Part shown: positions 762 to 19,580 of the stretch, piece after piece
How positions within the stretch are numbered: the stretch's first letter is position 1
Layout of the letters: every line of letters begins with the position of its first letter
Virus record (IMG/VR): IMGVR_UViG_3300035137_000084
Span: 1-45,087 of that record
From: a virus
DNA: 45,087 bases
Reading direction: 5' to 3' (one strand)
Position numbers and translations under genes: made by a program
Notes under the pieces: generated by a model
Told to the model about the DNA's origin: nothing
Database searches by the model: none
The model's input: only the letters and a program-made list of their open reading frames with translations

Positions 762-923
762 ATGAAAGACATTCTAAACCTGAAGACAGAAGAGTATAAA
801 CAACTCCTTAACTCTATCACCCTGCAGGGCTTTGACATAAAGACTCTGCAGCAAATGGAGGAGGACACTCGAAGACTCTGGGAGCTAGAACAGAAAGTTA
901 ATAGCCATATGTGGGAGAATTGA
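762..923 (+). CDS. Hypothetical small protein (53 aa, MKDILNLKTEEYKQLL...HMWEN)
   Basis: ATG at 762 is preceded by aaaggagaaaacgaca, the SD context shared by other early genes. The frame is open to TGA 921-923. It falls below the ORF-track length cutoff. Confidence 0.6.
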   Translation: MKDILNLKTEEYKQLLNSITLQGFDIKTLQQMEEDTRRLWELEQKVNSHMWEN

Positions 924-926
924 GCC

Positions 927-1370
927 ATGCCAAAAATAAACATCTCAGCAAAAGATTACAAACAAATGAAAAATTACATGCCGGCAGATCATCCTCTTTT
1001 AAAGAGAATAAAAACAGACATACTTCTCGCCAGTATCCCAAAAGGTAAAGTTATAGAGGTAACTCTAAAAAGTAATTCTTATAGTGGCTGTGAAGTTGTT
1101 GTAAAAGCTGAAAAGATATCAAAATATTGGTGTATATCTCCGGCTCTTGAAGGTGTTCAACCTCACATATCCCGGAAAACTTTAACTCATATGCCCACAG
1201 GTTTTACTTGTGGGGTATATGGTTCTAGGGTTAAACTCCGTCGATTCTGGTTTGATCTGCCAAAAGAGATTCAGAAATATATGGATGTTAAACACCCGAC
1301 TAAGTGGAACACCGCAAGTAAACTATATGTTGAAATGATCAGATATATCCAAGCTGGTATTTTAACATAG
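927..1370 (+). CDS. Hypothetical protein (147 aa)
   Basis: ORF with ggagaa 8 nt upstream of the ATG. No recognisable motif. Flanked by short direct repeats (see findings). Confidence 0.6.
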   Translation: MPKINISAKDYKQMKNYMPADHPLLKRIKTDILLASIPKGKVIEVTLKSNSYSGCEVVVKAEKISKYWCISPALEGVQPHISRKTLTHMPTGFTCGVYGSRVKLRRFWFDLPKEIQKYMDVKHPTKWNTASKLYVEMIRYIQAGILT

Positions 1371-1452
1371 TGAAAATCAATATTGCCATGTGGGAGAATT
1401 AACTTGACTGAAAAAGCTCAAAAAGATAACATTGTCATTGCCCCAAAACAAA

Positions 1453-1483
1453 AAGGCAACCCCATATTGGAGGTTGCCTTTTT
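1453..1483 (+). terminator. Rho-independent terminator
   Basis: A 9-bp stem aaggcaacc / ggttgcctt (1453-1461 / 1472-1480) runs into a T-run at 1479-1483. Confidence 0.7.
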
Positions 1484-1561
1484 GCCGGGCTGAGGCTGAA
1501 AACCGCAACAGATGAGATAACCCTTTATATAGTGTATCCTATTATATAAAGCAACTATTTT

Positions 1562-4534
1562 TTGACCATGACACATATAACTTTTCTAAAACCAGAAGAA
1601 AATTACTGTTTCACATCAAAAACTTACCATTTAGTCGATAATAAACCCCGAGAAAAAGACAGCTACAGGATGGGGGAATATTTCTCCTTTAAGTCTTTTA
1701 ATATCTCAACCCTGAAGCAAGCGTATGATTTTATAAAAAAATATTCAGATGGTTGGATTAGAATCAACGGCAAACCCCGACCAGATCTGGATAATCTTAT
1801 AGAACCTGTCAGGCGTAATAATGTTAATTTCCCTGAAACGGAATCCAACCTGATAATGTTGGATATTGACGGATGGGCGTTACCAAAAGGTTACGAGTGG
1901 GATCTTCACAGTCCGGATGCAACCCATGATCTGATAGTCAAGATGTTGCAGATTAAAGGTTTTGACTACCTTACAACCTCCGACTTCATCTTCCTTTTGA
2001 CTTCCGGGCAATGGGAAGCTGATAGGCTTAACTGCCATCTCTATTTTTATCTTGATAAACCAATTCACATATCTGTATTAAGAGATTGGTGTACTGCCCT
2101 TGCAAAGGTCCGTCAGCAGAAAGTATTTGACCCAATGACTCAGAGGTCGGCTCAACCGGACTACATTGGAAAACGAAAATGTATAGGTTTCCAAGATCCA
2201 AGACCGGAAAAAGCAAGGATTTGTTACTGTCACAACGGAAACCCTGTCCTTTCATATGACGTGTTTCTCGAAAAATTAAATCAAGATCTAAAAAGTGCCG
2301 GATATAGTGCGGGATCAAATAACCTGCAAGCCCCTATTCGACACAACTGGCTGGAAACGCTTAAACTGTGTGGACAACCAAGCCGGGGAATTAATGAGCC
2401 ATCCCATAGGGCAGCTGCCCAACTCGTCCAGGAGGTCGGCAGGGGGGCTATATTAAGCAATATAACCCGGTATGCCGAACAGATGCACAAATCAGCATGG
2501 GAGTCAATACACACAAATGATCCGTACACCAAAGGAGAAAGAGATTACAGTAAAGATTCAATTACTTATAATAAGTTACGTTTCCAGCAATATTTAACAT
2601 CTGCCTGTAATAAAAATTTTGGCAGTCAAGTCGATAAACTTAAAGAAATAGTTGAAGGGGCTATAAATCAGGCGAGCAATGGGGATATCGCCATGTTATT
2701 TGAGCGTCCCGTTTTCGATGCTTATATGCGATTGAAGTCGAGTCATACCGGAGCTTTTGCCCATGTAAGAGCCTTGTTCAAAAAGAAATTAAGAGGGGTA
2801 GTGCCCATTACTGATTTTGAGGGCGCCGCCAGAACCCAGAACACCGGAACAGAGGAAAATAATGAGGCCCATTTTAATGGAGACATGGAAATCGAGAACC
2901 AGTATCTTAACACGGTTCTGGACGAATTTGATTGGCTGGAAGACGATAATGGTCAACACTGGTGTGGTTGGCATTCTGGTAATGGAGTGGGTAATTATAG
3001 AATTGCTTCCCTCAACAGTAATCTACGCAATATCCTCTATCAAGTCGGCCTGGAAAAATCAGGGGGGTCAGTCTCAGGTCGTTTCGGAGACAAAGCATTG
3101 CGGTTGCTCCATGGACATAAGGAAAGATACCAGGATACCCCGGAATCCAGATTTAAAAAAGTGATGGTAGGATTGAGGGTAGCTCCTGTAGGGGGTTCTT
3201 ATTCCAGTGAGTTAACCACTTGGGTACATGCAGGTCTTCAACCGGATGGTAAATCCCTATGTATAAAAATAGAACCTGGCAATATAGAGTATTTCACCCT
3301 GAAAGATTGCCCGGTAAGATGGAGAACCCCCGAAGACTTTGCCCCTATAATATTTGCAAATACGGAACAGGTAGCAAAGAAATTCAATTCCATTGAAGAT
3401 CTGAAAACCTGGACAATAGATCGGCTGTTCCAGTTCTTCACTGTTAATCGTAGTGAACAGCCTATGCTTCTTGGTATCATATTGGCTATTCTTTCCGGGA
3501 GAGGTACATCCCCTTTGATTGAGTTTGTAGGCCCAAGAGCAAGCGGTAAATCGACTGCAAGTCGTATGATGGTGGATCTGCTGGACCCAAAGAAAGGTGG
3601 GCTTAATTCAGATGGGAGTATATCTGATCTTGGATCAATAAAAAAAGAAGATCTCATTAACGTGGTCCAGGACCGGTACCTGTCGGCTTTTGATAACATG
3701 AGTGGTCTTAATCCCCGACTGCAGGATCAACTATGCCAGATAGCCACGGGGATCAGTAAAGATCAGAGAATAATGTATGTCGGCACTTACACAAAAGTCT
3801 TTGCCAAAAGACCAATCATATTATCAGCTCTTGCTCCTATTGTTACCCGATCAGATCTTGCTTCCCGGACAGAAACTTTTCATTTCAATAAGCAGTTCAT
3901 CCTTCCACCAAATACAGTAACTCACGAATGGGAACGGGATAAACCTTTTATTTTCACCGGATTAACTCACCTCTTAAAAGATGTGCTTCTGAAAATAGAC
4001 CCTTCAAGGCGAATGTCAGGCATAGAAGCAAGGCGAATGTGGTATGAAGTAGCGGACGACTTCTTTTATAAAGAAAAAGTTGAACGAGAAGGGATAAGAT
4101 TGGATCGAAAAATACAGGGATCACTTAACACTTTGGTTAATTCGGATTTTTGTCTCGGAATTGTAGCTTGGCTGCAGCAAAAAGAAAAAGATGGAAACAC
4201 CGAAGTCCAAGGTGTTGTCAGCTCCCTTCTGGATAATTTTAAAGAGTTCATACTATCCCGGCAGGGTACAACTATCATAATTCCAACCCCAGGAGAAACT
4301 ATAGAATGGAGGGTAGCAGATTGGGGCTTACGGATACCGAATACCCCTAGAGGTTTTACTTTCCAGTTAAATAAATTTTATCACACTATTTTGGACATAT
4401 GCGGTTGGGATATTAATGCCGGAATGGATCGAAAAGCGAGCGGGATCGTTAGAACTTTTTGTAAATTAAATAAGATAGAAGTAATTGACAGAGAAAATAA
4501 AATATTAGTTGATAGTCATGGTGACTTGATATAA
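1562..4534 (+). CDS. Primase-polymerase (AEP-like) fused to a P-loop (SF3/VirE-like) helicase domain; replicative primase-helicase
   Basis: N-terminal AEP-like motifs are IMLDIDGW (DxD), NCHLYFYL (sxH) and SAQPDYIG. The central region has Walker A GPRASGKST and a Walker-B-like RYLSAFDNMSG. The TTG at 1562 could be replaced by the ATG at 1568 as the true start. Confidence 0.7.
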   Translation: MTMTHITFLKPEENYCFTSKTYHLVDNKPREKDSYRMGEYFSFKSFNISTLKQAYDFIKKYSDGWIRINGKPRPDLDNLIEPVRRNNVNFPETESNLIMLDIDGWALPKGYEWDLHSPDATHDLIVKMLQIKGFDYLTTSDFIFLLTSGQWEADRLNCHLYFYLDKPIHISVLRDWCTALAKVRQQKVFDPMTQRSAQPDYIGKRKCIGFQDPRPEKARICYCHNGNPVLSYDVFLEKLNQDLKSAGYSAGSNNLQAPIRHNWLETLKLCGQPSRGINEPSHRAAAQLVQEVGRGAILSNITRYAEQMHKSAWESIHTNDPYTKGERDYSKDSITYNKLRFQQYLTSACNKNFGSQVDKLKEIVEGAINQASNGDIAMLFERPVFDAYMRLKSSHTGAFAHVRALFKKKLRGVVPITDFEGAARTQNTGTEENNEAHFNGDMEIENQYLNTVLDEFDWLEDDNGQHWCGWHSGNGVGNYRIASLNSNLRNILYQVGLEKSGGSVSGRFGDKALRLLHGHKERYQDTPESRFKKVMVGLRVAPVGGSYSSELTTWVHAGLQPDGKSLCIKIEPGNIEYFTLKDCPVRWRTPEDFAPIIFANTEQVAKKFNSIEDLKTWTIDRLFQFFTVNRSEQPMLLGIILAILSGRGTSPLIEFVGPRASGKSTASRMMVDLLDPKKGGLNSDGSISDLGSIKKEDLINVVQDRYLSAFDNMSGLNPRLQDQLCQIATGISKDQRIMYVGTYTKVFAKRPIILSALAPIVTRSDLASRTETFHFNKQFILPPNTVTHEWERDKPFIFTGLTHLLKDVLLKIDPSRRMSGIEARRMWYEVADDFFYKEKVEREGIRLDRKIQGSLNTLVNSDFCLGIVAWLQQKEKDGNTEVQGVVSSLLDNFKEFILSRQGTTIIIPTPGETIEWRVADWGLRIPNTPRGFTFQLNKFYHTILDICGWDINAGMDRKASGIVRTFCKLNKIEVIDRENKILVDSHGDLI

Positions 4535-4865: not shown

Positions 4866-5219
4866 ATGATAAGACTTACAATTGAAGCAGCTACAATGGT
4901 TGACTTAATGTTCCAATGTGAACAGCTAGCGCAAGGTATTTCCCCAACTGCCCCCGTTCAACCTAAGAAAGCAGCTCCGGCTCAACCTTCCCCCGTTCAA
5001 CCTGAGAAAGCAGCTCCGGCTCAACCTGCTCCGGCTCAACCTGCTCCGGTTCCTACCGTAGAAGAGGTGGCCCAGGCCGCAAAACTTTTCTTGCAGAAAA
5101 ATCCTGAAATCAATCGCCCCAAGGTAGCCGCTTTCATCAAAGAAAGAGGTGCTGAAAGAGTCACTGCTCTGGACGATGCCGGACGTGTCGATTTTCTGGA
5201 ATTGACAAAGGAGGGGTAA
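4866..5219 (+). CDS. Hypothetical protein with Pro/Ala/Gln-rich repeat linker (PVQPxKAAPAQP x2, APAQP x2)
   Basis: The ATG at 4866 follows aaaggagaaaaaagaa; the ORF track starts at the GTG at 4836. The stop overlaps the next start (TAATG). Confidence 0.65.
   Translation: MIRLTIEAATMVDLMFQCEQLAQGISPTAPVQPKKAAPAQPSPVQPEKAAPAQPAPAQPAPVPTVEEVAQAAKLFLQKNPEINRPKVAAFIKERGAERVTALDDAGRVDFLELTKEG
4951..5055. repeat. Coding tandem repeat (39-nt unit x2, then 15-nt gctccggctcaacct units)
   Basis: cccccgttcaacct(a/g)agaaagcagctccggctcaacct occurs at 4951-4988 and 4990-5027. Confidence 0.8.
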
Positions 5220-6361
5220 TGGTCGAACACAGCAAATACTTCAGCCCGAGCGGTATGAGCCGGGTACTTAAATGTCCGGGTTCGGCAAAATTATGTGCCG
5301 AGCTGCCGGATACTCAGTCCGATGCGGCAAGGGACGGTACAATACAGCATGAATTTTGTGAAAAGAACATTCACGCCTTCATGTTTAACTCAGATCTCGT
5401 TGACTATTCCTCCCTGGATAAAAAGTTTCATGGAAATGTGAAATCGGCGATGCAGATGGTAAAAGATCTGTGTGACACCAATGGCGCCCATGTGCAAGCT
5501 TTGGAATATAACAACCATATTGACGGTATGGATGATATTTTCGGCACCATGGACGTTGTTCTTTGGTCAAAGGATAATAAGCACATGCTGGTTGTAGATT
5601 ACAAGTTCGGATACAACCCGGTAGCAGCTGAGTGGAATACTCAACTGCTCATCTATGCCATTATCGCTAGAAGAATATTCAATGTCAAACCTGAAACAGT
5701 GACATTGGCTATTATCCAACCAAAGGTTCATGAGTCCAAACCTGATCTTTTTACTCTCCCGTTCAGAGAGATCCAGGATTGGAGCGTAAATAACCTGCTA
5801 CCGGTGTATAACGGAGTCAACGATGGTTCGCTGGACAACACCTTTAATCCCGGAGAGGAGCAGTGTCGGTGGTGTAAAGCACAAGCTACTTGTCCGGCAC
5901 TCAAAGACGAAGTTATGGACGCTTTGAACTATCAACCAACTGAAGACAAGCTAGGAGATCTGATCGGAAAAGTCTCGATGATCAGGGAATGGTGTGCCAG
6001 CATAGAGGCTCGTGTTCTTGACGCATTGCAGCAGGGTAAACCGGTTCCCGGCTATAAACTTGTTCGTGGCCGGGCAAACCGGAGATGGAAAGACCCGGAA
6101 GCTGCTGAGAAATGGCTCAGACTACGGAAGTTCAAAGAGAAAGACAGGTTTGTTAAAAAAGTTATTGGGATTCCGGCAGCTGAAGCCTTGATAAAGGGGA
6201 TGGCCCTGTCGAAAAAACTCCAAAACTCTTTTTCTGATTTAATCGAAAAACCGGAAGGAAAATTGACCTATGCCAAAGCGGACGACCCCCGGCAAGAGGT
6301 TATCGTGGAAACAGCAGAAGAAACCCTGAAAGATGTTACCGATTTTTCAGATCTAATCTAA
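5219..6361 (+). CDS. PD-(D/E)XK (Cas4/RecB-like, DUF2800-type) nuclease with C-terminal Cys cluster
   Basis: The N-terminus is FSPSGMSRVLKCPGSAKL. The core is MDVVLW...LVVDYKFG...QLLIYA. The Cys cluster is CRWCKAQATCP. The gene lies next to a DUF2815-like SSB as in known phage replication modules. The protein ends in FSDLI. Confidence 0.75.
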   Translation: MVEHSKYFSPSGMSRVLKCPGSAKLCAELPDTQSDAARDGTIQHEFCEKNIHAFMFNSDLVDYSSLDKKFHGNVKSAMQMVKDLCDTNGAHVQALEYNNHIDGMDDIFGTMDVVLWSKDNKHMLVVDYKFGYNPVAAEWNTQLLIYAIIARRIFNVKPETVTLAIIQPKVHESKPDLFTLPFREIQDWSVNNLLPVYNGVNDGSLDNTFNPGEEQCRWCKAQATCPALKDEVMDALNYQPTEDKLGDLIGKVSMIREWCASIEARVLDALQQGKPVPGYKLVRGRANRRWKDPEAAEKWLRLRKFKEKDRFVKKVIGIPAAEALIKGMALSKKLQNSFSDLIEKPEGKLTYAKADDPRQEVIVETAEETLKDVTDFSDLI

Positions 6362-6385: not shown

Positions 6386-6967
6386 ATGAATCCAACAACG
6401 ATCAACACACCGGAAGCCCGAATGAGTTACATGAAACTGTATCATCCTGTAAAGAACCTGAATGACAAAGAGATATATCAGGTAACTCTTCTTATCCCAA
6501 AAGAAACAGATATCTCGACCATTCAGGCCGCAATCAATCAGGTTATCGAGAATGAAAGTAACAAAAAGTTTCGAGGGGTACCGGGAGCCGCTATCCAGAG
6601 CTGCCTGAAAGACGGTGATATTTATTACCAGCAAAAACCCGAAAAGCGGGAGGCCTACATTGGCCACTGGTATATCAACTGCTCCAAAGATCCACAGTAT
6701 GGTGCGCCTACGGTCCTGGATGAAAACGGTATGCCTACAGATGATCCGGCAGTCTTTGACTCAGGTGACTACGGGATTGCTCGTATCCAGTTCTGGGGCT
6801 ACAATACCAAAGGGAATCAGGGTGTATCCTGTACCATCTTCGGGGTAAAGAAGACCCGCACAGGCGAGAAGCTTGGAGGTGGTGAGTCCAGGGATGAAAC
6901 CATGGCAGCTCTTGGAGGGTTGGCTTCCACTGCTACGGAGAGCATCGACGAAGACAGCCTGATATAA
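6386..6967 (+). CDS. ssDNA-binding protein, DUF2815 / Enc34-type (T7 gp2.5-like)
   Basis: Supported by the N-terminus TPEARMSYMKLYHP, the gene size, and its position after the DUF2800 nuclease and before polA. The acidic C-terminal tail is ESIDEDSLI. Confidence 0.65.
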   Translation: MNPTTINTPEARMSYMKLYHPVKNLNDKEIYQVTLLIPKETDISTIQAAINQVIENESNKKFRGVPGAAIQSCLKDGDIYYQQKPEKREAYIGHWYINCSKDPQYGAPTVLDENGMPTDDPAVFDSGDYGIARIQFWGYNTKGNQGVSCTIFGVKKTRTGEKLGGGESRDETMAALGGLASTATESIDEDSLI

Positions 6968-7562: not shown

Positions 7563-7757
7563 ATGAAAAAACAAGACTTGGAAATATTATCCGCTGAGAT
7601 GTCTGGAATATTGGAGTTGAGTTGGTGGAATAAAGCTCCTATCCCCAAAGAATATGACATGAATAGTCAACACCTGCTGGAACGGCAGATTGAATTAAAG
7701 GCCTTGTGCCGGAGTGTACGAGACAAAGCCAATCGGTTATCAATGGAGATAAAATGA
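7563..7757 (+). CDS. Hypothetical protein (64 aa)
   Basis: ORF abutting the previous stop. Its stop overlaps the polymerase start in an ATGA. Confidence 0.6.
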   Translation: MKKQDLEILSAEMSGILELSWWNKAPIPKEYDMNSQHLLERQIELKALCRSVRDKANRLSMEIK

Positions 7758-10621
7758 TATATCTCGACTTTGAAACCCGATCAAAAATAGATTTAGTACA
7801 AGCCGGGCTGTACCGCTATGCTGAAGATATATCTACATCGGTTCTCTGTCTGGCATGGGCCATGGATGATGAAAATCCGGAATTATGGATTCCCGGAGAT
7901 CCTGCACCTCACAGATTATTTAACAGCCTCCATGAACACTTCCTTTCCGCTTATAATGCAGAGTTTGAAATAACCATCTGGCGGGAGATATGTGTAAAGC
8001 GAATGGGTTGGCCCGAAATACCGGATAATAAGTGGTGTTGTACCATGATTGACGCACTCGCTCTTGGACTTCCCCGTTCTATGGAGCAGTGTGCTTTGGC
8101 TCTTGGTACCATTGACAAAAAGGACACGAAAGGCAAGAACCTTATCAGAAAGCTCAGTAAACCTATTGCTGCAGGAAAAAAGAAAGGTGAGTTCCGGGAA
8201 AAAGCTGAATTTCATCAAGATTATCTGGATCTTTATTCCTATTGTAAGCAGGATGTCAGGACAGAACGGGCCATTCGCAACAGTCTCCCCCTGCAAGCCA
8301 CTCTTAATTTTGAAAGACAGGATTGGTTGAACACTCTCAAGATGAATCGAAGAGGGATACCAATCGACAAGTTAACAGCGTCAAGTATCCTTGCCCTGTC
8401 TGAGCAGAAGATTGAAAAACTCGATGCCGAGATAATGGAATTAACAGATGAAAAAATAAGCACAGCTCGACAACGGGAAAAAATAAGGTGTCACCTGGAA
8501 GATGAGTTTAAGCTATTCGTACCGGACATGCAGAATACCACTGTTGAAAAGTTACTTGAGGGGGATTTGCCTGAAAAAGCAGAAAGGATACTGAATATTC
8601 GCAGATCGATTAATCACCCATCCGTTGCCAAGTTCAAAAAGATTTTTGTCCAACTCTGTAAAGACAGTACTATAAAAGGATGCTATGTTCACCACGGAGC
8701 AGGGACCGGCAGGTATACCGCTCAAGGTATGCAACCACAAAACTTTCCACGGTTAAGTGTTCTCTATGAGAAGGTAGCTATTGAGATGATTCAGCAGGAT
8801 TCTCTGAGTGATATAGAGCTTGTCATGGGTGACAGCCTTCATCTTTTTTCCGCTTTACTGAGGGCAAATATCAAAGCCCCTGACGGTGAAACATTCTTTA
8901 ATGCGGATCTGTCACAGATCGAAGCTCGTATGGCGGCATGGATCGCTAAAGAGTATCATATACTCAAAGCCTATGCTGACGGTCTGGATGCGTATCGGGT
9001 AACTTCTGCGGATATGTACGGGGTTCCCTATGACGTTGTAACAACGGAACAACGGCAAGGGGGAAAAACTACAGTGTTGGCATGCCTAGCTTCTGGGCAA
9101 AAAGTTCTTACAGATAAAGGGTTAATTCCTATCGAGAAAGTTTGTACTTGCATGAGGGTTTGGGATGGAGTATCCTTTGTCAATCATAGTGGAACTATTT
9201 ATCAAGGAGTAAAAAAGGTAATAAATTATGGGAAATTATTGGCAACACCGGACCACATTGTTTACACCGAAGAAGGGGAGAAAATATCCTTACAAGAAGC
9301 AAACCGGAAAAGCGCAACCATCAAAACGACCGGAATTGGTAGGAGAGCAATTCGGATGGGTGAAAATTATAGATTCACAGACTCGTATGAAAAAGAAAGA
9401 CCGACAAATAAAATGTCAATGTACCAACTGTGGATTGATAAAGTGGATCAGCTTATACAATCTTCTCAACGGCAAAACTGCTGGCTGCCAGAAGTGCAGC
9501 CAACCGAAGTTGGTTCCGAAATGGCTTTTGAAAAGGTGTGCGGACGCAAAATCTCGATGTCAAAACCAACAACACCCTCATTGGAAAAATTATGGTCAAC
9601 GTGGCATAAAGTTTTGTTTCAATTCTCCTGTGGATATGGCTCTTTGGATAGAATCAAATCTAGGATTACACAAAGATTTAGAGATAGATCGTATAGACAA
9701 CAACGGAAACTATCAAGTAGGAAATTTGAGATACTCCAACAGGCGATTAAACTGCTCAAACAGAAGAGGGAGTCGAGCTCTACGGTTCCACGAATTTCGT
9801 CAGAAGTATCCAGATGTAAGGTATGCGGACAACACCTTACGCAATTTGATATGGCGAGGGTTGACCGACGAAGAAATAGTTTATCGTTTCTACAACAAAC
9901 CGAGTTGCAAACCAAAAGGCAAGTATGGGACATTCTCAACGCCGGACCCCGAAACCGTTTCACAGTTGAAGGAAAGCTTGTAAGTAATTGCGGTTTCGGT
10001 GGAGGAGAAAAAGCCCTTGACGCAATGGCTCAGAACTATGGACTTTCTTTTACCAAAGAAAAACGAATTGAACTTGTCAATGCTTTTAGACAGGCAAGAC
10101 CTGGACTTGTAAAATCCTGGGAATCTTTTGGGGACGCAGCAAGAAAAGCCATGGAGAATCCGGGGTATGAAGTACCGGTGTCTACTAATCAAAAGTTTAA
10201 ATTTTCTCAACAAGGTCACTGGCTGTTTCTCCACCTACCAAACAATAGAAGAATATGTTTTCCTTTTGCTCAGTGGATCCCATGGAAGACTCCATGGGGG
10301 CAAATTAAAATGTCTGTTACCCATAGGTGGATGAGTTCATATACCCGCAAATGGGAAAGACGTAGTATCACAGGAGCTTCCCTTTTCCAATCCGCTGTCC
10401 AGGGTCTATCTCGTGACGTTCTAATGGAAGCTCACAGGCGATTGGAACAAAACGGATATAAAATAGTCATGACCGTTCACGATGAATTAATGGCTCAGAT
10501 AATAGACGATGCAAGTTCAAACTTGGATCATTTTAACAGGTTGTTCAAACAGAATCCTTCATGGTGTCCTGATCTCCCCATTGACAGTGATCCGTGGAGA
10601 GGGGAAAGGTACAAGAAATGA
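7754..10621 (+). CDS. Family-A DNA polymerase with 3'-5' exonuclease domain, interrupted by an intein (9083..9988)
   Basis: The start at 7754 (MIYLDFETRS) is coupled by ATGA to the upstream gene. The exonuclease motifs are DFET, YNAEFE and YCKQD. Motif A is NADLSQIEARM. Motif B, GKTTVLA|CGFGGG, is split by the intein. Motif C is VHDEL. Confidence 0.85.
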   Translation: MIYLDFETRSKIDLVQAGLYRYAEDISTSVLCLAWAMDDENPELWIPGDPAPHRLFNSLHEHFLSAYNAEFEITIWREICVKRMGWPEIPDNKWCCTMIDALALGLPRSMEQCALALGTIDKKDTKGKNLIRKLSKPIAAGKKKGEFREKAEFHQDYLDLYSYCKQDVRTERAIRNSLPLQATLNFERQDWLNTLKMNRRGIPIDKLTASSILALSEQKIEKLDAEIMELTDEKISTARQREKIRCHLEDEFKLFVPDMQNTTVEKLLEGDLPEKAERILNIRRSINHPSVAKFKKIFVQLCKDSTIKGCYVHHGAGTGRYTAQGMQPQNFPRLSVLYEKVAIEMIQQDSLSDIELVMGDSLHLFSALLRANIKAPDGETFFNADLSQIEARMAAWIAKEYHILKAYADGLDAYRVTSADMYGVPYDVVTTEQRQGGKTTVLACLASGQKVLTDKGLIPIEKVCTCMRVWDGVSFVNHSGTIYQGVKKVINYGKLLATPDHIVYTEEGEKISLQEANRKSATIKTTGIGRRAIRMGENYRFTDSYEKERPTNKMSMYQLWIDKVDQLIQSSQRQNCWLPEVQPTEVGSEMAFEKVCGRKISMSKPTTPSLEKLWSTWHKVLFQFSCGYGSLDRIKSRITQRFRDRSYRQQRKLSSRKFEILQQAIKLLKQKRESSSTVPRISSEVSRCKVCGQHLTQFDMARVDRRRNSLSFLQQTELQTKRQVWDILNAGPRNRFTVEGKLVSNCGFGGGEKALDAMAQNYGLSFTKEKRIELVNAFRQARPGLVKSWESFGDAARKAMENPGYEVPVSTNQKFKFSQQGHWLFLHLPNNRRICFPFAQWIPWKTPWGQIKMSVTHRWMSSYTRKWERRSITGASLFQSAVQGLSRDVLMEAHRRLEQNGYKIVMTVHDELMAQIIDDASSNLDHFNRLFKQNPSWCPDLPIDSDPWRGERYKK
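9083..9988 (+). mobile_element. Intein (302 codons) in the polymerase motif-B region
   Basis: Block A is CLASGQKVLTDKG, block B is LLATPDHIVYT and blocks F/G are VWDILNAGPRNRFTVEGKLVSN. The following +1 residue is Cys (CGFGGG). Confidence 0.8.
9228..9983 (+). CDS. HNH-family homing endonuclease encoded out of frame inside the intein
   Basis: Frame 3n is open for 251 codons. Motifs present are GEQFGWVKII, CQCTNCG...GCQKC and WKNYGQRGIKFC...IDRIDNNGNYQVGNLRYSNRRLN. The stop lies 5 nt before the intein C-terminal Asn codon. aagg sits 9 nt upstream of the ATG. Confidence 0.7.
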   Translation: MGNYWQHRTTLFTPKKGRKYPYKKQTGKAQPSKRPELVGEQFGWVKIIDSQTRMKKKDRQIKCQCTNCGLIKWISLYNLLNGKTAGCQKCSQPKLVPKWLLKRCADAKSRCQNQQHPHWKNYGQRGIKFCFNSPVDMALWIESNLGLHKDLEIDRIDNNGNYQVGNLRYSNRRLNCSNRRGSRALRFHEFRQKYPDVRYADNTLRNLIWRGLTDEEIVYRFYNKPSCKPKGKYGTFSTPDPETVSQLKESL

Positions 10622-10818
10622 GAAATGAACATTTGTTTAACCGGCTGATCAGCAGATATACACCAATATTTGATAAGACCATGATGTATGGCGTTCCTTT
10701 ATCGGAACTCAATGCGGATCAATTAAGAGCTGCTATCTGCGCTCTTAATGATCTGGAAAAAGCAACACGAATGCGAATACAGAAAGAGCGTAATTTCTTC
10801 AAGAGAAGGAGAAAATGA
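10618..10818 (+). CDS. Hypothetical protein, paralog of 7058..7297
   Basis: The ATG at 10618 overlaps the polymerase stop (ATGA). It contains the motif VPLSELNADQLRAAICALN. Confidence 0.65.
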   Translation: MRNEHLFNRLISRYTPIFDKTMMYGVPLSELNADQLRAAICALNDLEKATRMRIQKERNFFKRRRK

Positions 10819-10822
10819 AATA

Positions 10823-11683
10823 ATGAAAATTGCTTTGATAGACGAAGATAATACTAAATTTCCTAATTTGGCTCTTATGAAAATATCAGCATACCATAAG
10901 TCAATAGGAGATCATGTAGAGTTTTTTAATACAAACAAAGAATATGATAAAATTTACTCTTCTAAGATTTTTACCTGGACAACTCCTACTTCAACAAGTT
11001 TTCCCAGTATAAAAGGGGGAACCGGGTTCAGTTTACAAAGGAAACTACCAATTAGAATAGAATTAATGTGTCCTGATTATCAGTTATATGACACAAAACA
11101 CTCTTATGGTTTTTTAACAAGAGGATGTATACGGAAGTGCAAATGGTGTTTTGTCCCTAAAAAAGAAGGGATGATCAGAAAACATCAAGACATAGAAGAC
11201 TTTTTAAGGCATAAAAGTGCAATACTTATGGATAACAACGTACTCGCTTCTTCTTTTGGTATAGGGCAAATAAATAAAATAGCAGATCTCGGCATAAAAG
11301 TAGATTTTAATCAAGGTTTAGATTCTCGACTTATTGACAATAAAATAGCGAAGCTGTTATCAAAAGTAAAATGGTTATCTCCCGTCCGATTAGCATGTGA
11401 TTCATACTCACAAGTTGAATCTATAGAAAAAGCTGTTAGGCTTTTACGTTGGCACAACGTTACGCCTAGAAAATATTTTTGTTATGTACTACTAACCGAC
11501 GACATTGAAGATTGTATTGAAAGAATACGTTTTTTAAAAGGTTTAAACATAGATCCTTTTGTTCAACCTTATCGGGGCACGGAAAACGAAAATCCAACTA
11601 AGCTGCAAAAACAATTTGCTAGATGGGTAAATCACAAAGCGATATTTAATACCGTTCCCTGGAAGGATTATTGTAAGAAATGA
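10823..11683 (+). CDS. Radical SAM enzyme (CX3CX2C) with a short B12-binding-like N-terminal region
   Basis: The ATG at 10823 follows aaggagaaaatgaaata. GFLTRGCIRKCKWCFVPKKEG is the canonical radical SAM cluster motif. The N-terminus FPNLALMKISAYHKSIGDHVEF resembles class-B rSAM leaders. Confidence 0.75.
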   Translation: MKIALIDEDNTKFPNLALMKISAYHKSIGDHVEFFNTNKEYDKIYSSKIFTWTTPTSTSFPSIKGGTGFSLQRKLPIRIELMCPDYQLYDTKHSYGFLTRGCIRKCKWCFVPKKEGMIRKHQDIEDFLRHKSAILMDNNVLASSFGIGQINKIADLGIKVDFNQGLDSRLIDNKIAKLLSKVKWLSPVRLACDSYSQVESIEKAVRLLRWHNVTPRKYFCYVLLTDDIEDCIERIRFLKGLNIDPFVQPYRGTENENPTKLQKQFARWVNHKAIFNTVPWKDYCKK

Positions 11684-13086
11684 ATAAATTTGTACCAAAG
11701 GATTATCAAGTAGAAGACATAGATTTCCTGTCCACTGCTCGTATAGGTGGCCTCTTTGAAGAAATGGGGCTTGGTAAAACAGTAGTAGTCCTGAAGACCA
11801 TAGAAGCTGCAATGTTTGATTTTGTGGATACGGAAAAAACGTTGGTCGTATCGACTAAAAACGTAATACTCAATCAATGGCCTCAGGAGATAAAGAAGTG
11901 GGATTTTTCCAGTAACTTTTCCTTTACCATTCTTCATGGGGAATATAAACAGCAGAACCTCCTACTTAAAAAGCAGATTTATCTTATCAACTATGATGGG
12001 TTGTACTGGTTGAACCGACAGTACCGGAACAAAAGGTTGTGGCCCATCCTGCCAAAATTTGACATGGTAGTAATAGACGAATCTACTCATATAAAAAATG
12101 ATCAGTCACAACGAAGTCAAATAATTCAGCAGCTTTTCGGCCTTGCAAAGCGGAAAATAATACTCACAGGTACGCCTACTCCCAATGGACTTATTGATTT
12201 ATACGGACAGATCTGTTTTTTAAATGACCGTGTTCTGGGTACTAATCTCACCTCTTTTAGGAATAATTATTTTATCTCGGTAGATGGTGGACATGGTGGA
12301 TATAAGTATGTACCGAGACAAGGAAGTCGGGATCTTATTACTAAACGAATTGCCCATCTGGTCAAGATACGAAAAGCGGCTGATCATCTTGAAAAAGAAG
12401 AGGTCAGAATCAATAAGATAGAATGTAATTTTGATGACAAAATACAAGAGGAATATGATACTCTGGAAAGTGATTTCTTTTTGGAACTGGATGATCAGAA
12501 AGTAGAAGTTTTTAGTGCAGCTTCCCTGTCATCTAAACTTCGTCAGTACACTCAAGGCTTCCTGTACGGACAAGATAAGAAAGTGTCTCAGGTCAATGAT
12601 ACAAAGCATAAGGTTTTAAAAGAAATACTGGAATATTCTACAGGCCATCCGATACTATGTGGGATACAGTTCATTGCCGAAGTGGATCTAATCAGAAAGT
12701 TTCTGGGATATAATGTTCCGGCTATCAACTCCAAAACTTCTGACAGAGACACCGCAAAGTATATTGAACAATGGAATAATAGACAACTACCACTTCTTAT
12801 TGCACATCCTCAGTCAATAGCCCATGGTATAAATCTGCAATCCGGTGGTAATATAATATTGTGGCTTGGGCTTCCCTGGGCTATGGACCATTACCAGCAA
12901 TTCATCGGCAGATTGGACAGACAGGGCCAGAAGAACGGAGTCATAGTTCACCATTTGATCGTAAAGAAAACTATCGATGAGGCCATTATGGCAGCTTTAG
13001 AGAGTAAAGTAGACACTCAGAACAGAGTGATCGATTCAATACAGAAATATCGAGATGAAAAAGAAAATATTGGAAAAAGATGTTGA
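11680..13086 (+). CDS. SNF2-family (SF2) helicase/ATPase
   Basis: Motifs present are GLGKT, DMVVIDESTHIKN, LTGTPTPNGLIDLY and QFIGRLDRQGQ. The start overlaps the radical SAM stop (ATGA). Confidence 0.85.
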   Translation: MNKFVPKDYQVEDIDFLSTARIGGLFEEMGLGKTVVVLKTIEAAMFDFVDTEKTLVVSTKNVILNQWPQEIKKWDFSSNFSFTILHGEYKQQNLLLKKQIYLINYDGLYWLNRQYRNKRLWPILPKFDMVVIDESTHIKNDQSQRSQIIQQLFGLAKRKIILTGTPTPNGLIDLYGQICFLNDRVLGTNLTSFRNNYFISVDGGHGGYKYVPRQGSRDLITKRIAHLVKIRKAADHLEKEEVRINKIECNFDDKIQEEYDTLESDFFLELDDQKVEVFSAASLSSKLRQYTQGFLYGQDKKVSQVNDTKHKVLKEILEYSTGHPILCGIQFIAEVDLIRKFLGYNVPAINSKTSDRDTAKYIEQWNNRQLPLLIAHPQSIAHGINLQSGGNIILWLGLPWAMDHYQQFIGRLDRQGQKNGVIVHHLIVKKTIDEAIMAALESKVDTQNRVIDSIQKYRDEKENIGKRC

Positions 13087-18076: not shown

Positions 18077-18327
18077 GGTGATTCCTCTATATTTTCGACC
18101 CACAGAACAAAATAGTTTGAATCGGTCTCAATTTGATCCATCATAGTATCCTCACACTCGATAAAAATAACACAACTGTTTGGATCTGGTATTAAGTTTT
18201 CGCTCGGCTGTCCTGTCACATCTGACCATTTATCTAGCGAGTAATGGTCTGCAATTAACGGACGATTTGGGTTTTCTTCTGAGCCATCCCCGATCCAGCT
18301 TGTTATCACTTCTGCTTGTTGTTTCAT
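18073..18327 (-). CDS. Hypothetical protein
   Basis: The ATG at 18327 overlaps the upstream TGA by 1 nt. A TTG alternative lies at 18330. Confidence 0.55.
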   Translation of the reverse strand: MKQQAEVITSWIGDGSEENPNRPLIADHYSLDKWSDVTGQPSENLIPDPNSCVIFIECEDTMMDQIETDSNYFVLWVENIEESP

Positions 18328-19580
18328 CAATAAGTGTCGAGCTGACTATACTCGCCTCCTGTGCCTGCCGGTTTAAGTGCTACTAGTTCATGTGTTTGCA
18401 CGTTAGAATCATTAGACCTTCTCAGGCCAAAAAGTGTTGCTGTTTCATTTAGCACCGCAGAGGCGTAAGAAACCTTTGTTGAACCATCAAGATAACCAGC
18501 GATTGTCTGTCCATTGCACACAACCGTTAGACGGTAATCAGTGCTCCCGTTTACCGTAACTGATGTTGATGCTCGTTTAGTTGTCGTGCCACCGTTCACC
18601 TCATAAATTGCAATCTCGTCACCACTTGAGCTTGCATTGACAAACCAATAGTTACTATTATTGCTATATCTGCAAAGAAGATGAAACCCAGAGATAGGTG
18701 ACACAACCTGGGCAACAGTTTCGCCCCACACGTCAGAGACACCAGCATCAATCGATGCTATTGATAATGCCGTGGCAGAATATGCACGATTAGATTGGAT
18801 TTCCCAAGAGCCATTTTGAACAGTCCAGCCCCCTCCCTCCGTATCTACATCGGGGTCATGAGCATCCAAAGAAGTGCCGTTTGTGTCGGTACAAGTGTCA
18901 AGAAATACGGGAACAAGGACTGAAGACAGATCAACATTGTGAACTCTGATATTATCATATGTGCCGCCATAGTCATAAAAAGACATGGCAGGATAATCCA
19001 TGCCAGTATCAATTATGTCTTTTGATCGATAAAGAAGAATCCAGTTGGTACCGTTATGCCAGTAGATTGACCCACCGTAAGGATAAGACGAAATGTTAGT
19101 AGCGGCATCCATCGGCACGCCGTTTGAGTCGTAGCCACCTTTGATAATATAAAACTTCTCGTCCGTGTTATTGCTCACAGTGCCAATAATCGGGCCGACC
19201 GTACCGTTTATAACCAGCTTGACATTTCCTGAACCGTCTATCTGGATACCAAGCATAATGTTGGCAGTGCCAATTCCATTATCAGACCAACCAGCAAGAA
19301 GTTGTTGGGTTGTTATTGATGATCCATTTAAAGTGAATCCAAACCCCCTACCGGCAACAGCATTCAGGTCATTTGACACCCATCCCAGATCGCCCCATGC
19401 GGGGGTAGTCTGTGCAGTTACACTGTATACTCCACCGGAAGCGGCGATTGATCCGTCAGTCTCGGTATAATTGATCGTACCGTCTTCAGCAGTCTTGCTT
19501 GCGCCGGTGGCTCGCAGGAGGTAGGAGACGGTATCGCCACCTCCCGGCTTCCACCAATAAAAAAAATCTAGTATCTGCAT
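18327..19580 (-). CDS. Tail fibre / receptor-binding protein with lectin (ConA/LamG-like) beta-rich domains
   Basis: Gly/Ser/Thr/Asn-rich beta-type sequence located distal in the tail module. The domain call comes from composition and pattern only. Confidence 0.5.
   Translation of the reverse strand: MQILDFFYWWKPGGGDTVSYLLRATGASKTAEDGTINYTETDGSIAASGGVYSVTAQTTPAWGDLGWVSNDLNAVAGRGFGFTLNGSSITTQQLLAGWSDNGIGTANIMLGIQIDGSGNVKLVINGTVGPIIGTVSNNTDEKFYIIKGGYDSNGVPMDAATNISSYPYGGSIYWHNGTNWILLYRSKDIIDTGMDYPAMSFYDYGGTYDNIRVHNVDLSSVLVPVFLDTCTDTNGTSLDAHDPDVDTEGGGWTVQNGSWEIQSNRAYSATALSIASIDAGVSDVWGETVAQVVSPISGFHLLCRYSNNSNYWFVNASSSGDEIAIYEVNGGTTTKRASTSVTVNGSTDYRLTVVCNGQTIAGYLDGSTKVSYASAVLNETATLFGLRRSNDSNVQTHELVALKPAGTGGEYSQLDTY

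Follow-up and report, generated by a model that had tools for sequence, protein, structure and literature searches.

A putative HNH-like homing endonuclease gene overprinted on a contiguous phage DNA polymerase intein, and the large, largely unannotated family to which it belongs

Introduction

Canonical phage inteins of the HNH type carry their endonuclease in frame, as a domain within the intein polypeptide (Dalgaard et al. 1997, as cited), whereas in "fractured genes" the host gene and its intein are split into two open reading frames (ORFs) whose products splice in trans, with a free-standing endonuclease gene between the intein halves (Dassa et al., NAR 2009, PMC2677866). Here we describe a viral DNA of 45,087 nucleotides (IMG/VR record IMGVR_UViG_3300035137_000084, positions 1 to 45,087; hereafter the window) in which a family-A DNA polymerase gene contains a contiguous class-1 intein, and in which the middle of that intein also encodes, in the +1 frame of the same strand, a probable HNH-like homing endonuclease. 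The locus resembles the canonical inteins in combining an intein with an HNH-type endonuclease in a phage replication gene, but its endonuclease lies in another frame. Like the fractured genes, it has a putatively separately translated endonuclease gene between the N- and C-terminal intein parts, an arrangement that fits invasion by a free-standing gene; unlike them, it is one uninterrupted ORF, as are all 83 intact loci considered below.

Out-of-frame endonuclease ORFs in contiguous inteins have been reported before. For actinophage inteins, Gosselin et al. (2025; bioRxiv 10.1101/2025.01.02.630785) described antisense LAGLIDADG and antisense VSR-like ORFs and also same-strand "frame 3" ORFs for endonuclease VII-like proteins, proposed that a free-standing homing endonuclease gene had invaded the intein, and cited Gorbalenya 1998. 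The out-of-frame LAGLIDADG gene of the cyanobacterial dnaX intein is attributed to Gorbalenya 1998, as cited, and its +2-frame ORF was reported to be under purifying selection by Phillips, DeSimone and Gogarten (2026; bioRxiv 10.64898/2026.09.14.751524). A further comparison is offered by the ShiLan-type "hidden HNH" insertions in mycobacteriophage DNA methylase genes (Arsenault et al., Genes 2025, PMC11855218).

The window locus shares with the actinophage case a contiguous intein in a phage gene, an unstructured intein-frame middle, and a same-strand endonuclease of the His-Me-finger type in another frame. The actinophage protein, however, is endonuclease VII-like, with a catalytic core in residues 1-67 that matches PDB 1E7D, and lies in "frame 3" of actinophage host genes, whereas the window protein, set apart from it by the respective descriptions, has about 250 residues with a zinc ribbon, a YGxRGI segment and a D-R-x-D...N...N pattern, lies in the +1 frame, and belongs to a family hosted by PolA and helicase-type genes in phages of other bacteria. 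The dnaX intein is likewise contiguous, with purifying selection on the overlapping endonuclease ORF, a relaxed intein frame in the overlap, and coexisting mini-intein relatives; its authors propose secondary invasion of a mini-intein, and the window Hint profile has the Spl DnaX mini-intein as one of its best PDB sequence matches. It differs in carrying a LAGLIDADG "+2 ORF" in a cellular cyanobacterial gene, as against an HNH/AP2-like +1 ORF in phage polymerase and helicase genes. The ShiLan insertions, too, are free of stops in the host frame and are spanned almost entirely by a zinc-finger HNH-type ORF in another frame, and the question of how that ORF is translated is common to both. They lack Hint or splicing blocks and are thought to remain as a protein loop, and their ORF, in the third frame, starts with GTG and has no detectable ribosome-binding site; the window has a complete Hint domain with exact boundaries, and most loci of its family have an ATG with a Shine-Dalgarno (SD)-like motif.

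A prior reading of the window, made from its sequence alone, had regarded a contiguous intein with an out-of-frame endonuclease gene as without precedent; the cases above overturn that view. None of the published literature that we found describes the endonuclease type, frame, host genes or family size reported here. The window thus represents a new, large and largely unannotated family of an already known and supposedly rare kind, with an endonuclease type that is, judged by the published descriptions, unlike the earlier cases.

Results

A class-1 intein in the polymerase motif-B region

The host ORF (Table 1) matches Pfam DNA_pol_A (E=1.8e-17) and phrog_17 (E=6.5e-74), and tblastn searches with it retrieved phage DNA polymerases. 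When positions 9083-9988 are taken out, a polymerase of 669 residues results, which aligns without gaps across the junction LA/CGFGGG to the intein-free polymerases of Ralstonia phage RpY1 (668 residues; junction sequence GKVAVLA/LGYGGG) and ctfPj964 (669 residues). Reading the boundaries from the window sequence and 80 homologous inteins, we find that the intein begins with CLASGQKVLTDKG, contains ATPDH, and ends with VWDILNAGPRNRFTVEGKLVSN, after which the C-extein opens with Cys. All sequence-level statements of the sequence-only reading on this point, namely the extent of the intein, its place in the motif-B region, the full set of Hint blocks, the terminal Asn and the +1 Cys, hold.

The splicing residues are conserved throughout the family. 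Cys1 is kept in 20 of 20 diverse members, where block A has the consensus CIAxGxLVLTD, and the invariant residues of the N-terminal Hint part are C1, T10, G13, W27-D28-G29, H35, T55 and H58; block B (T55-P-D-H58) aligns with ATPDHKVLT of the PI-MtuI RecA intein. Those of the C-terminal part are V109, D111, G116, F121 and N130 in the numbering of the mini-intein alignment. The terminal Asn never varies; it is preceded by Ser or His, and the +1 residue is Cys, or Ser in a few loci. A profile of the two Hint parts matched only inteins in the PDB (E from 0.003), including the PI-MtuI RecA intein, the Spl DnaX mini-intein, and DnaE and DnaB inteins; the window intein matched Pfam Hint_2 and Intein_splicing weakly.

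When the intein-frame product was modeled with AlphaFold2, residues 1-95 and 275-302 had a predicted local distance difference test score (pLDDT) above 90, with the middle between them at 37-73. The top 14 Foldseek matches of this model in the PDB were all inteins, among them Npu and Ssp DnaE, gp41-1, AceL NrdHF and Ssp DnaB, with probabilities of 0.96-1.0, borderline E-values of 2e-3 to 0.1, and template modeling scores, normalized to the target, of 0.36-0.56. The middle is rich in Ser, Arg, Lys and Gln, is not conserved as a protein sequence, is predicted to be largely disordered, and matched no family in Pfam and PHROG searches. With its nucleophilic Cys1, blocks A, B, F and G, terminal Asn, Hint fold and precise insertion, the element is a class-1 intein. 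Splicing of the 302-residue segment is probable and is indirectly supported, because the essential polymerase is kept as a single open frame in the 83 intact loci.

A second reading frame spans the middle of the intein

An ORF of 251 codons is open in the +1 frame relative to the intein, with the length and endpoints that had been read from the sequence, as an ORF listing confirmed. It starts a few codons upstream of Hint block B, and its TAA (9981-9983) falls within the Leu-Val-Ser codons that precede the terminal Asn, five nucleotides short of the intein end. Across the overlap the intein frame has no stop codon and the third frame has 22; together with the lack of any family match, this bears out the earlier description of a stop-free intein middle with no endonuclease motif.

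The nesting and its frame offset are conserved across a family

A protein search with the nested ORF returned about 65 homologs at 40-57% identity, nearly all of about 250 residues, and relatives of the nested protein were located on at least 455 viral contigs in a scan of IMG/VR. On the three longest homolog contigs the ORF lies out of frame within a longer open ORF, which encodes a polymerase in two and a helicase-like protein in one. We classified 84 loci: the best 80 of the IMG/VR matches, these three contigs, and the window. In 83 of them, the window included, the ORF is nested in an ORF of 2.0-3.6 kb (where complete), and the offset is always the same, the host frame being the nested frame minus 1. 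The 83 intact loci come from many samples and share 36-57% protein identity. The exception, L068 (positions 2537-4480), has an indel that joins the N-terminal Hint part to the endonuclease frame and leaves the host gene broken. As a candidate in-frame version of the element it was rejected, since its ORF stops at the endonuclease stop and the C-terminal Hint part and extein lie in another frame. No in-frame version of the endonuclease family was found among the 84 loci or among the best 150 of 116,269 profile matches (the cluster representatives of the nested-protein superfamily at E≤1e-3).

The layout is identical in deposited phages, namely Gardnerella vB_Gva_AB1, Streptococcus Javan101, 104, 107, 113 and 255, and PhiSdyV1524. 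The annotation of each deposited record that was inspected or listed shows neither the intein nor the nested ORF, both of which lie beneath a single "DNA polymerase" coding sequence (Table 1).

Insertion sites fall into seven classes, two in PolA motif B, at positions four residues from each other, and the others in several helicase-type motifs. The sequence-only reading had supposed an unusual, rare intermediate between intein types; the arrangement is instead a stable trait of a family comprising 83 intact loci and the broken L068. In four of the seven site classes (flanks of L001-L083; window 9062-9082) the N-extein ends in or adjoins G-K-(T/x)-(D), as in RQxGKT/C, GRGxR..GKxD/C, GKT/CGIIIDH and GKxxxLA/C. 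Such local similarity may have helped the element to switch host genes.

A single window could by itself owe its two frames to a pair of compensating sequencing or assembly indels, or be a decaying remnant that is open by chance. We consider this extraordinarily improbable, given the identical offset in 83 loci from many samples with GC contents of 36-64%, its presence in finished genomes of cultured phages and prophages, the absence of an in-frame version from the profile matches just described, the confidently predicted fold of the nested protein, and the purifying selection on its frame. A chance open frame or a sequencing error is ruled out by the family-wide conservation together with the shuffling tests that follow.

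Selection keeps both frames open

With the frames offset in this way, a stop codon can arise in the intein frame only where a nested codon ending in T precedes one starting with AA, AG or GA. Nested codons with these starts follow a T-ending codon in 0 of 78 cases, as against 55 of 173 for the other codons. When the synonymous codons of the nested ORF were shuffled, the intein frame acquired 16.2 stops on average, and none of 20,000 shuffles was free of stops. The reverse shuffle, in which the intein-frame protein was kept, gave 7.7 stops in the nested frame and again no stop-free outcome (0/20,000). The same holds family-wide: the middle of the intein frame contains no stop in all 73 unique loci, as against a median of 10.3 expected by synonymous shuffling, with a per-locus probability of zero stops of at most 0.021, a median of 11 stops in the third frame, and a GC content of 36-64%.

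We also measured codon-position entropy over 73 aligned inteins. It peaks at intein codon position 3 in 9084-9263, at position 3 of the nested frame in about 9327-9935, and again at intein codon position 3 in 9936-9986, which encodes blocks F and G. Because third-position variation peaks in the respective frame, the N-terminal Hint part, the endonuclease and the C-terminal Hint part are the products under selection in these three stretches. Constraint along the element therefore runs from intein to nested ORF to intein, with purifying selection on the nested frame and a relaxed intein frame in the overlap. This comparison of codon positions among related genomes, which had been proposed as a check, and the shuffling in both directions confirm the claim that selection maintains both frames. 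The cost of the overlap is low, because openness of the intein frame needs only the synonymous constraint described above.

The nested protein is best labeled an HNH-like homing endonuclease

The nested protein matched PHROG families annotated as HNH endonuclease (phrog_374, E=1.6e-23; phrog_3377, E=1e-16; phrog_2081, E=3e-7), and a fold search of BFVD gave 81 matches at E≤1e-3, down to 4e-12, with names that include HNH, AP2 and homing endonuclease; in both databases these names are annotations and not tested functions. In its AlphaFold2 model, the confidently folded core comprises a β-rich module with a four-cysteine zinc ribbon (C65, C68, C87, C90), a YGxRGI segment, a ββα unit and C-terminal helices. 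Strands at residues 152-155 and 167-170 and a helix at 172-193 are predicted for the ββα unit, in which R155, Y162, N166 and N178 are invariant, free-standing relatives included. The stretches with pLDDT below 50, residues 1-28 and 242-251, are exactly those that lie over Hint-coding DNA.

Several results weigh against an HNH nuclease. The nested protein had no significant match in Pfam or NCBIfam, and none to the Pfam models Endonuclease_7, LAGLIDADG or Vsr; HNH_3 (Pfam) matched 1 of 29 family members, at E=0.18. Its profile found only a spurious match of 34 residues among PDB sequences, and Foldseek found no PDB structure at E≤1e-3. At the position expected for the first catalytic His of HNH enzymes, an equivalence drawn from spacing and predicted topology, both the nested proteins and their free-standing relatives have the invariant Arg155 (D-R-x-D). 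The earlier description of a "textbook" HNH endonuclease thus stands as regards the PHROG names, the BFVD folds, and the ββα topology with its conserved Asn, and fails as regards the catalytic first His and matches to curated models. Separate profile searches of the two frames were similarly divided: the nested frame matched PHROG HNH families and no Pfam family, and the Hint profile matched PDB inteins, with Pfam Hint matches that were weak. An Arg at the first-His position (within nested-protein residues 154-178, window 9687-9761) also recurs as an invariant residue across the superfamily, free-standing genes with HNH endonuclease annotations included (e.g., L086:1519-2160, P0067, P0068 and P0070), some members of which carry the module in tandem, with four copies in P0113 and two, plus five zinc-ribbon modules, in P0133.

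These features allow for a protein that is expressed and is not a nuclease, for example a factor for DNA binding or targeting that descends from an HNH-like fold, or one with some other phage function, the intein persisting by other means. The Arg in place of the canonical His and the lack of curated matches would fit such a protein, as would the tandem modules, which are frequent among DNA-binding modules, and the similar divergence of inteins and exteins with no clear recent transfers. We nevertheless judge it unlikely. Like a mobile intein, the element is found at seven different conserved positions within replication genes; its protein most closely matches phage homing endonucleases in fold, and the PHROG families carry HNH endonuclease annotations; free-standing relatives lie between replication genes in the manner of free-standing homing endonuclease genes; and both conserved Asn residues are kept in the predicted ββα unit. 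"HNH-like homing endonuclease" is therefore the best label, with catalysis presumed.

Start signals point to internal initiation

Most loci have an ATG that coincides with window position 9228 or precedes it by four codons. Recurrently, AGGAGG or AAGGAG, read as K-E-V in the intein frame, stands 6-10 nucleotides 5' of this ATG, and nested-frame stops often lie directly 5' of it (at 9210, 9219 and 9222 in the window). At 55 of 73 loci the ATG has an SD-like motif of 4 nucleotides or more (background 0.16 per position), and at 33 of 73 one of 5 nucleotides or more (background 0.038). The mRNA around the start is unusually free of structure in the window (z=+1.95), and 38 of the 55 loci fall in the least-structured quartile (Wilcoxon p ~4e-8). 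A scan of 8700-9228 found no plus-strand promoter-like site upstream of 9228 and no terminator. The conserved ATG, the SD-like motif, the upstream nested-frame stops and the unstructured start region together suggest that the nested ORF is most likely translated by internal initiation at ATG 9228.

Some observations speak against this mode of expression. The SD-like element of the window is weak, with AAGG at 9 nucleotides and the stronger AAGGAG 18 nucleotides upstream; an ATG accompanied by an SD-like motif is missing from 18 of 73 loci; and the motif could in part be a by-product of the conserved Hint residues K-E-V. The loci are, moreover, phylogenetically related, so that the counts of SD motifs and of unstructured regions are not independent.

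Programmed frameshifting would be another route, either by two shifts, +1 downstream of block B and -1 ahead of block F, which would yield a canonical intein with its endonuclease domain in frame, or by a single +1 shift yielding a fusion of N-extein, Hint-N and endonuclease such as the sequence-only reading had offered as its second option. Constraint does change frame exactly where the shifts would be needed. Fusions of this type also exist: in L068, P0116 and P0170, products of about 640 residues, a helicase N-extein and Hint-N run into the endonuclease frame and end at the endonuclease stop. Their indels lie at differing positions, and assembly error, decay of the copy or genuine fusion could account for them. 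Frameshifting is, however, disfavored, because ribosomes leaving the intein frame would remove the reason for its openness, and that frame is open in 83 intact loci where about 10-16 stops would be expected. The nested-frame stops directly 5' of the conserved ATG and SD-like motif are a signature of initiation; the differing indel positions and broken host genes of the three fusions are as expected for errors or decay; and no conserved slippery site turned up, in work that included no systematic search for one. We therefore hold frameshifting to be quite improbable, and internal initiation on an overprinted gene within a mini-intein scaffold, the first option of the sequence-only reading, fits best, in view of the start signals and the relatives described next.

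Mini-intein and free-standing relatives suggest a composite origin

Close Hint relatives in PolA genes (in the motif-B region, at the PolA_a or PolA_b position) are mini-inteins that lack the middle, such as P0074 at 57% identity. Mini-inteins P0074, P0076-P0082 and P0084 are 44-57% identical in the Hint parts and are without the whole middle of about 170 codons; in P0076, one polymerase carries two of them. Distant relatives of the nested protein, on the other hand, are free-standing genes annotated as HNH endonuclease, such as Bacteroides phage BS-TP2 gp33, and are located between replication genes. An origin in which a mini-intein-type Hint scaffold later came to carry an endonuclease gene is plausible from these relationships. 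Distances between Hint parts and between endonuclease cores co-vary (Mantel r=0.74, reached in 0 of 2000 permutations), so that the two have diversified together.

Nesting of related ORFs was also seen in different inteins. In L001 (7100-8400), the polymerase has a second, different intein (CLSLRTDVLSYRGW...VVHN/CTQAICRD) with a +1-frame endonuclease-like ORF (7588-8229) that belongs to the free-standing subtype and shares 24% identity with the window ORF. In Escherichia phage vB_EcoS_PS2 (PV637039; L085), the polymerase coding sequence (849-4037) contains a different intein at the neighboring PolA site RQIGKA/CELG, in which a related endonuclease-like ORF (span 2330-3091) is nested in the +2 frame, and in phage AV129 an endonuclease homolog lies under the DNA polymerase I coding sequence, by sequence match in a similar way to PS2. 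From the second intein of L001 (+1) and the PS2/AV129 intein (+2), nesting appears to have arisen more than once.

As for homing itself, no pair among the sampled loci has a near-identical intein in clearly divergent exteins, so that this sample yields no demonstration of recent horizontal transfer. Within site classes, the best case of intein versus flanking extein identity is 0.81 versus 0.71, and many pairs are unalignable. No close relatives of the window polymerase, whether intein-free, mini or full alleles, were found in IMG/VR.

Genomic setting and feature coordinates

The polymerase gene stands in the phage replication module of the window, and the opposite strand encodes head, portal, terminase and tail genes. 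Two further ORFs matched no PHROG family at E≤1e-5, one of 990 residues (1562-4534) at the start of the replication module and one of 417 residues (18327-19580) on the minus strand.

Table 1 Coordinates of the intein, the nested ORF, their surroundings in the window, and matching coding sequences in deposited records.
Feature	Sequence	Position	Strand	Details
Class-1 intein, polymerase frame	Window	9083..9988	+	302 codons; Cys1...Ser-Asn, then Cys+1
Nested endonuclease-like ORF	Window	9228..9983	+	251 codons; frame 3n, +1 relative to intein
Hint N-terminal part, residues 1-95	Window	9083..9367	+	Blocks A and B, T55-P-D-H58; pLDDT 92-98
Intein-frame read-through linker, residues 96-274	Window	9368..9904	+	Stop-free; pLDDT 37-73
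Hint C-terminal part, residues 275-302	Window	9905..9988	+	Blocks F and G (VWDILNAGPRNRFTVEGKLVSN); pLDDT 90-97
Probable translation-initiation region of nested ORF	Window	9204..9230	+	AAGGAG 9204-9209, AAGG 9215-9218, ATG 9228-9230
Confidently folded core, nested residues 30-225	Window	9315..9902	+	AlphaFold2 pLDDT 80-98; invariant columns
Predicted ββα (His-Me-finger-like) unit, nested residues 152-193	Window	9681..9806	+	I-D154-R155-I-D-N158...G165-N166...N178
Family-A DNA polymerase precursor ORF, intein inside	Window	7706..10621	+	971 codons, frame 3n+2; ORF listing
N-extein	Window	7706..9082	+	C-terminal end ...QRQGGKTTVLA in polymerase motif-B region; spliced-product alignment
C-extein	Window	9989..10621	+	CGFGGGEKAL... 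via motif C (VHDEL) to stop codon; ORF listing, alignment
Exonuclease	Window	5219-6361		Replication module
Gp2.5-like single-stranded DNA-binding protein	Window	6386-6967		Replication module
Radical-SAM protein	Window	10748-11683		Replication module
SNF2-type helicase	Window	11680-13086		Replication module
"DNA polymerase", single coding sequence over intein and nested ORF	MW387018.1	4521-7424
"DNA polymerase", single coding sequence	MK448666, MK448668, MK448670, MK448719, MK448840	~7-2874
"DNA polymerase", single coding sequence	OQ418408	21155-24022

Discussion

We favor, with a probability of roughly three in four, an independently translated, overprinted HNH-like homing endonuclease gene within a contiguous class-1 intein that is built on a mini-intein-like scaffold. 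In the polymerase frame, ribosomes would read through the intein, and its Hint halves (N-terminal, about 95 residues; C-terminal, about 28), joined by a disordered linker of about 180 residues, would associate, splice out 302 residues, and join ...TTVLA to CGFGGG... to give the 669-residue polymerase. In the +1 frame, the 251-codon HNH/AP2-like zinc-ribbon protein would be produced by ribosomes that initiate within the polymerase mRNA at ATG 9228, directed by an SD-like sequence written into Hint codons and by locally unstructured mRNA, with its first 28 or so and last 25 or so residues presumably carried as disordered passengers on Hint-coding DNA. By cutting or nicking intein-free alleles, the nested protein would cause the intein and the nested gene to be copied in together, which would amount to homing.

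It is about an even bet, in our estimate, that the overprinted endonuclease gene constitutes a stable, successful and repeatedly evolved third intein architecture beside the in-frame full inteins and the split inteins. The case for it consists of the contigs, at least 455 in number, the seven site classes, selection on both frames down to about 40% protein identity, and a ribosome-binding site placed within Hint codons. Out-of-frame intein endonucleases have been called a rarity in recent papers; hundreds of members and independent nestings suggest that the layout is common and durable. In gene calls and GenBank entries the whole is either labeled "DNA polymerase" or split into pieces, and both the intein and the nested gene go unnoticed; surveys that consider only in-frame endonucleases would score such elements as mini or degenerate inteins.

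In practical terms, a Hint scaffold of about 125 residues that accommodates an arbitrary linker of about 180 residues may be of use, and conserved motifs of polymerases and helicases might be targeted with the nested proteins as candidate site-specific nucleases or nickases. The family also offers a clean natural example of overlapping genes, in which the cost of the overlap is one synonymous rule, and a large dataset in support of the model in which the splicing domain comes first and the endonuclease gene invades later. If the third architecture is real, the dosage of the endonuclease would be set by internal initiation and uncoupled from the output of the host protein, and many of the "mini" or "degenerate" inteins in databases may hide active homing genes.

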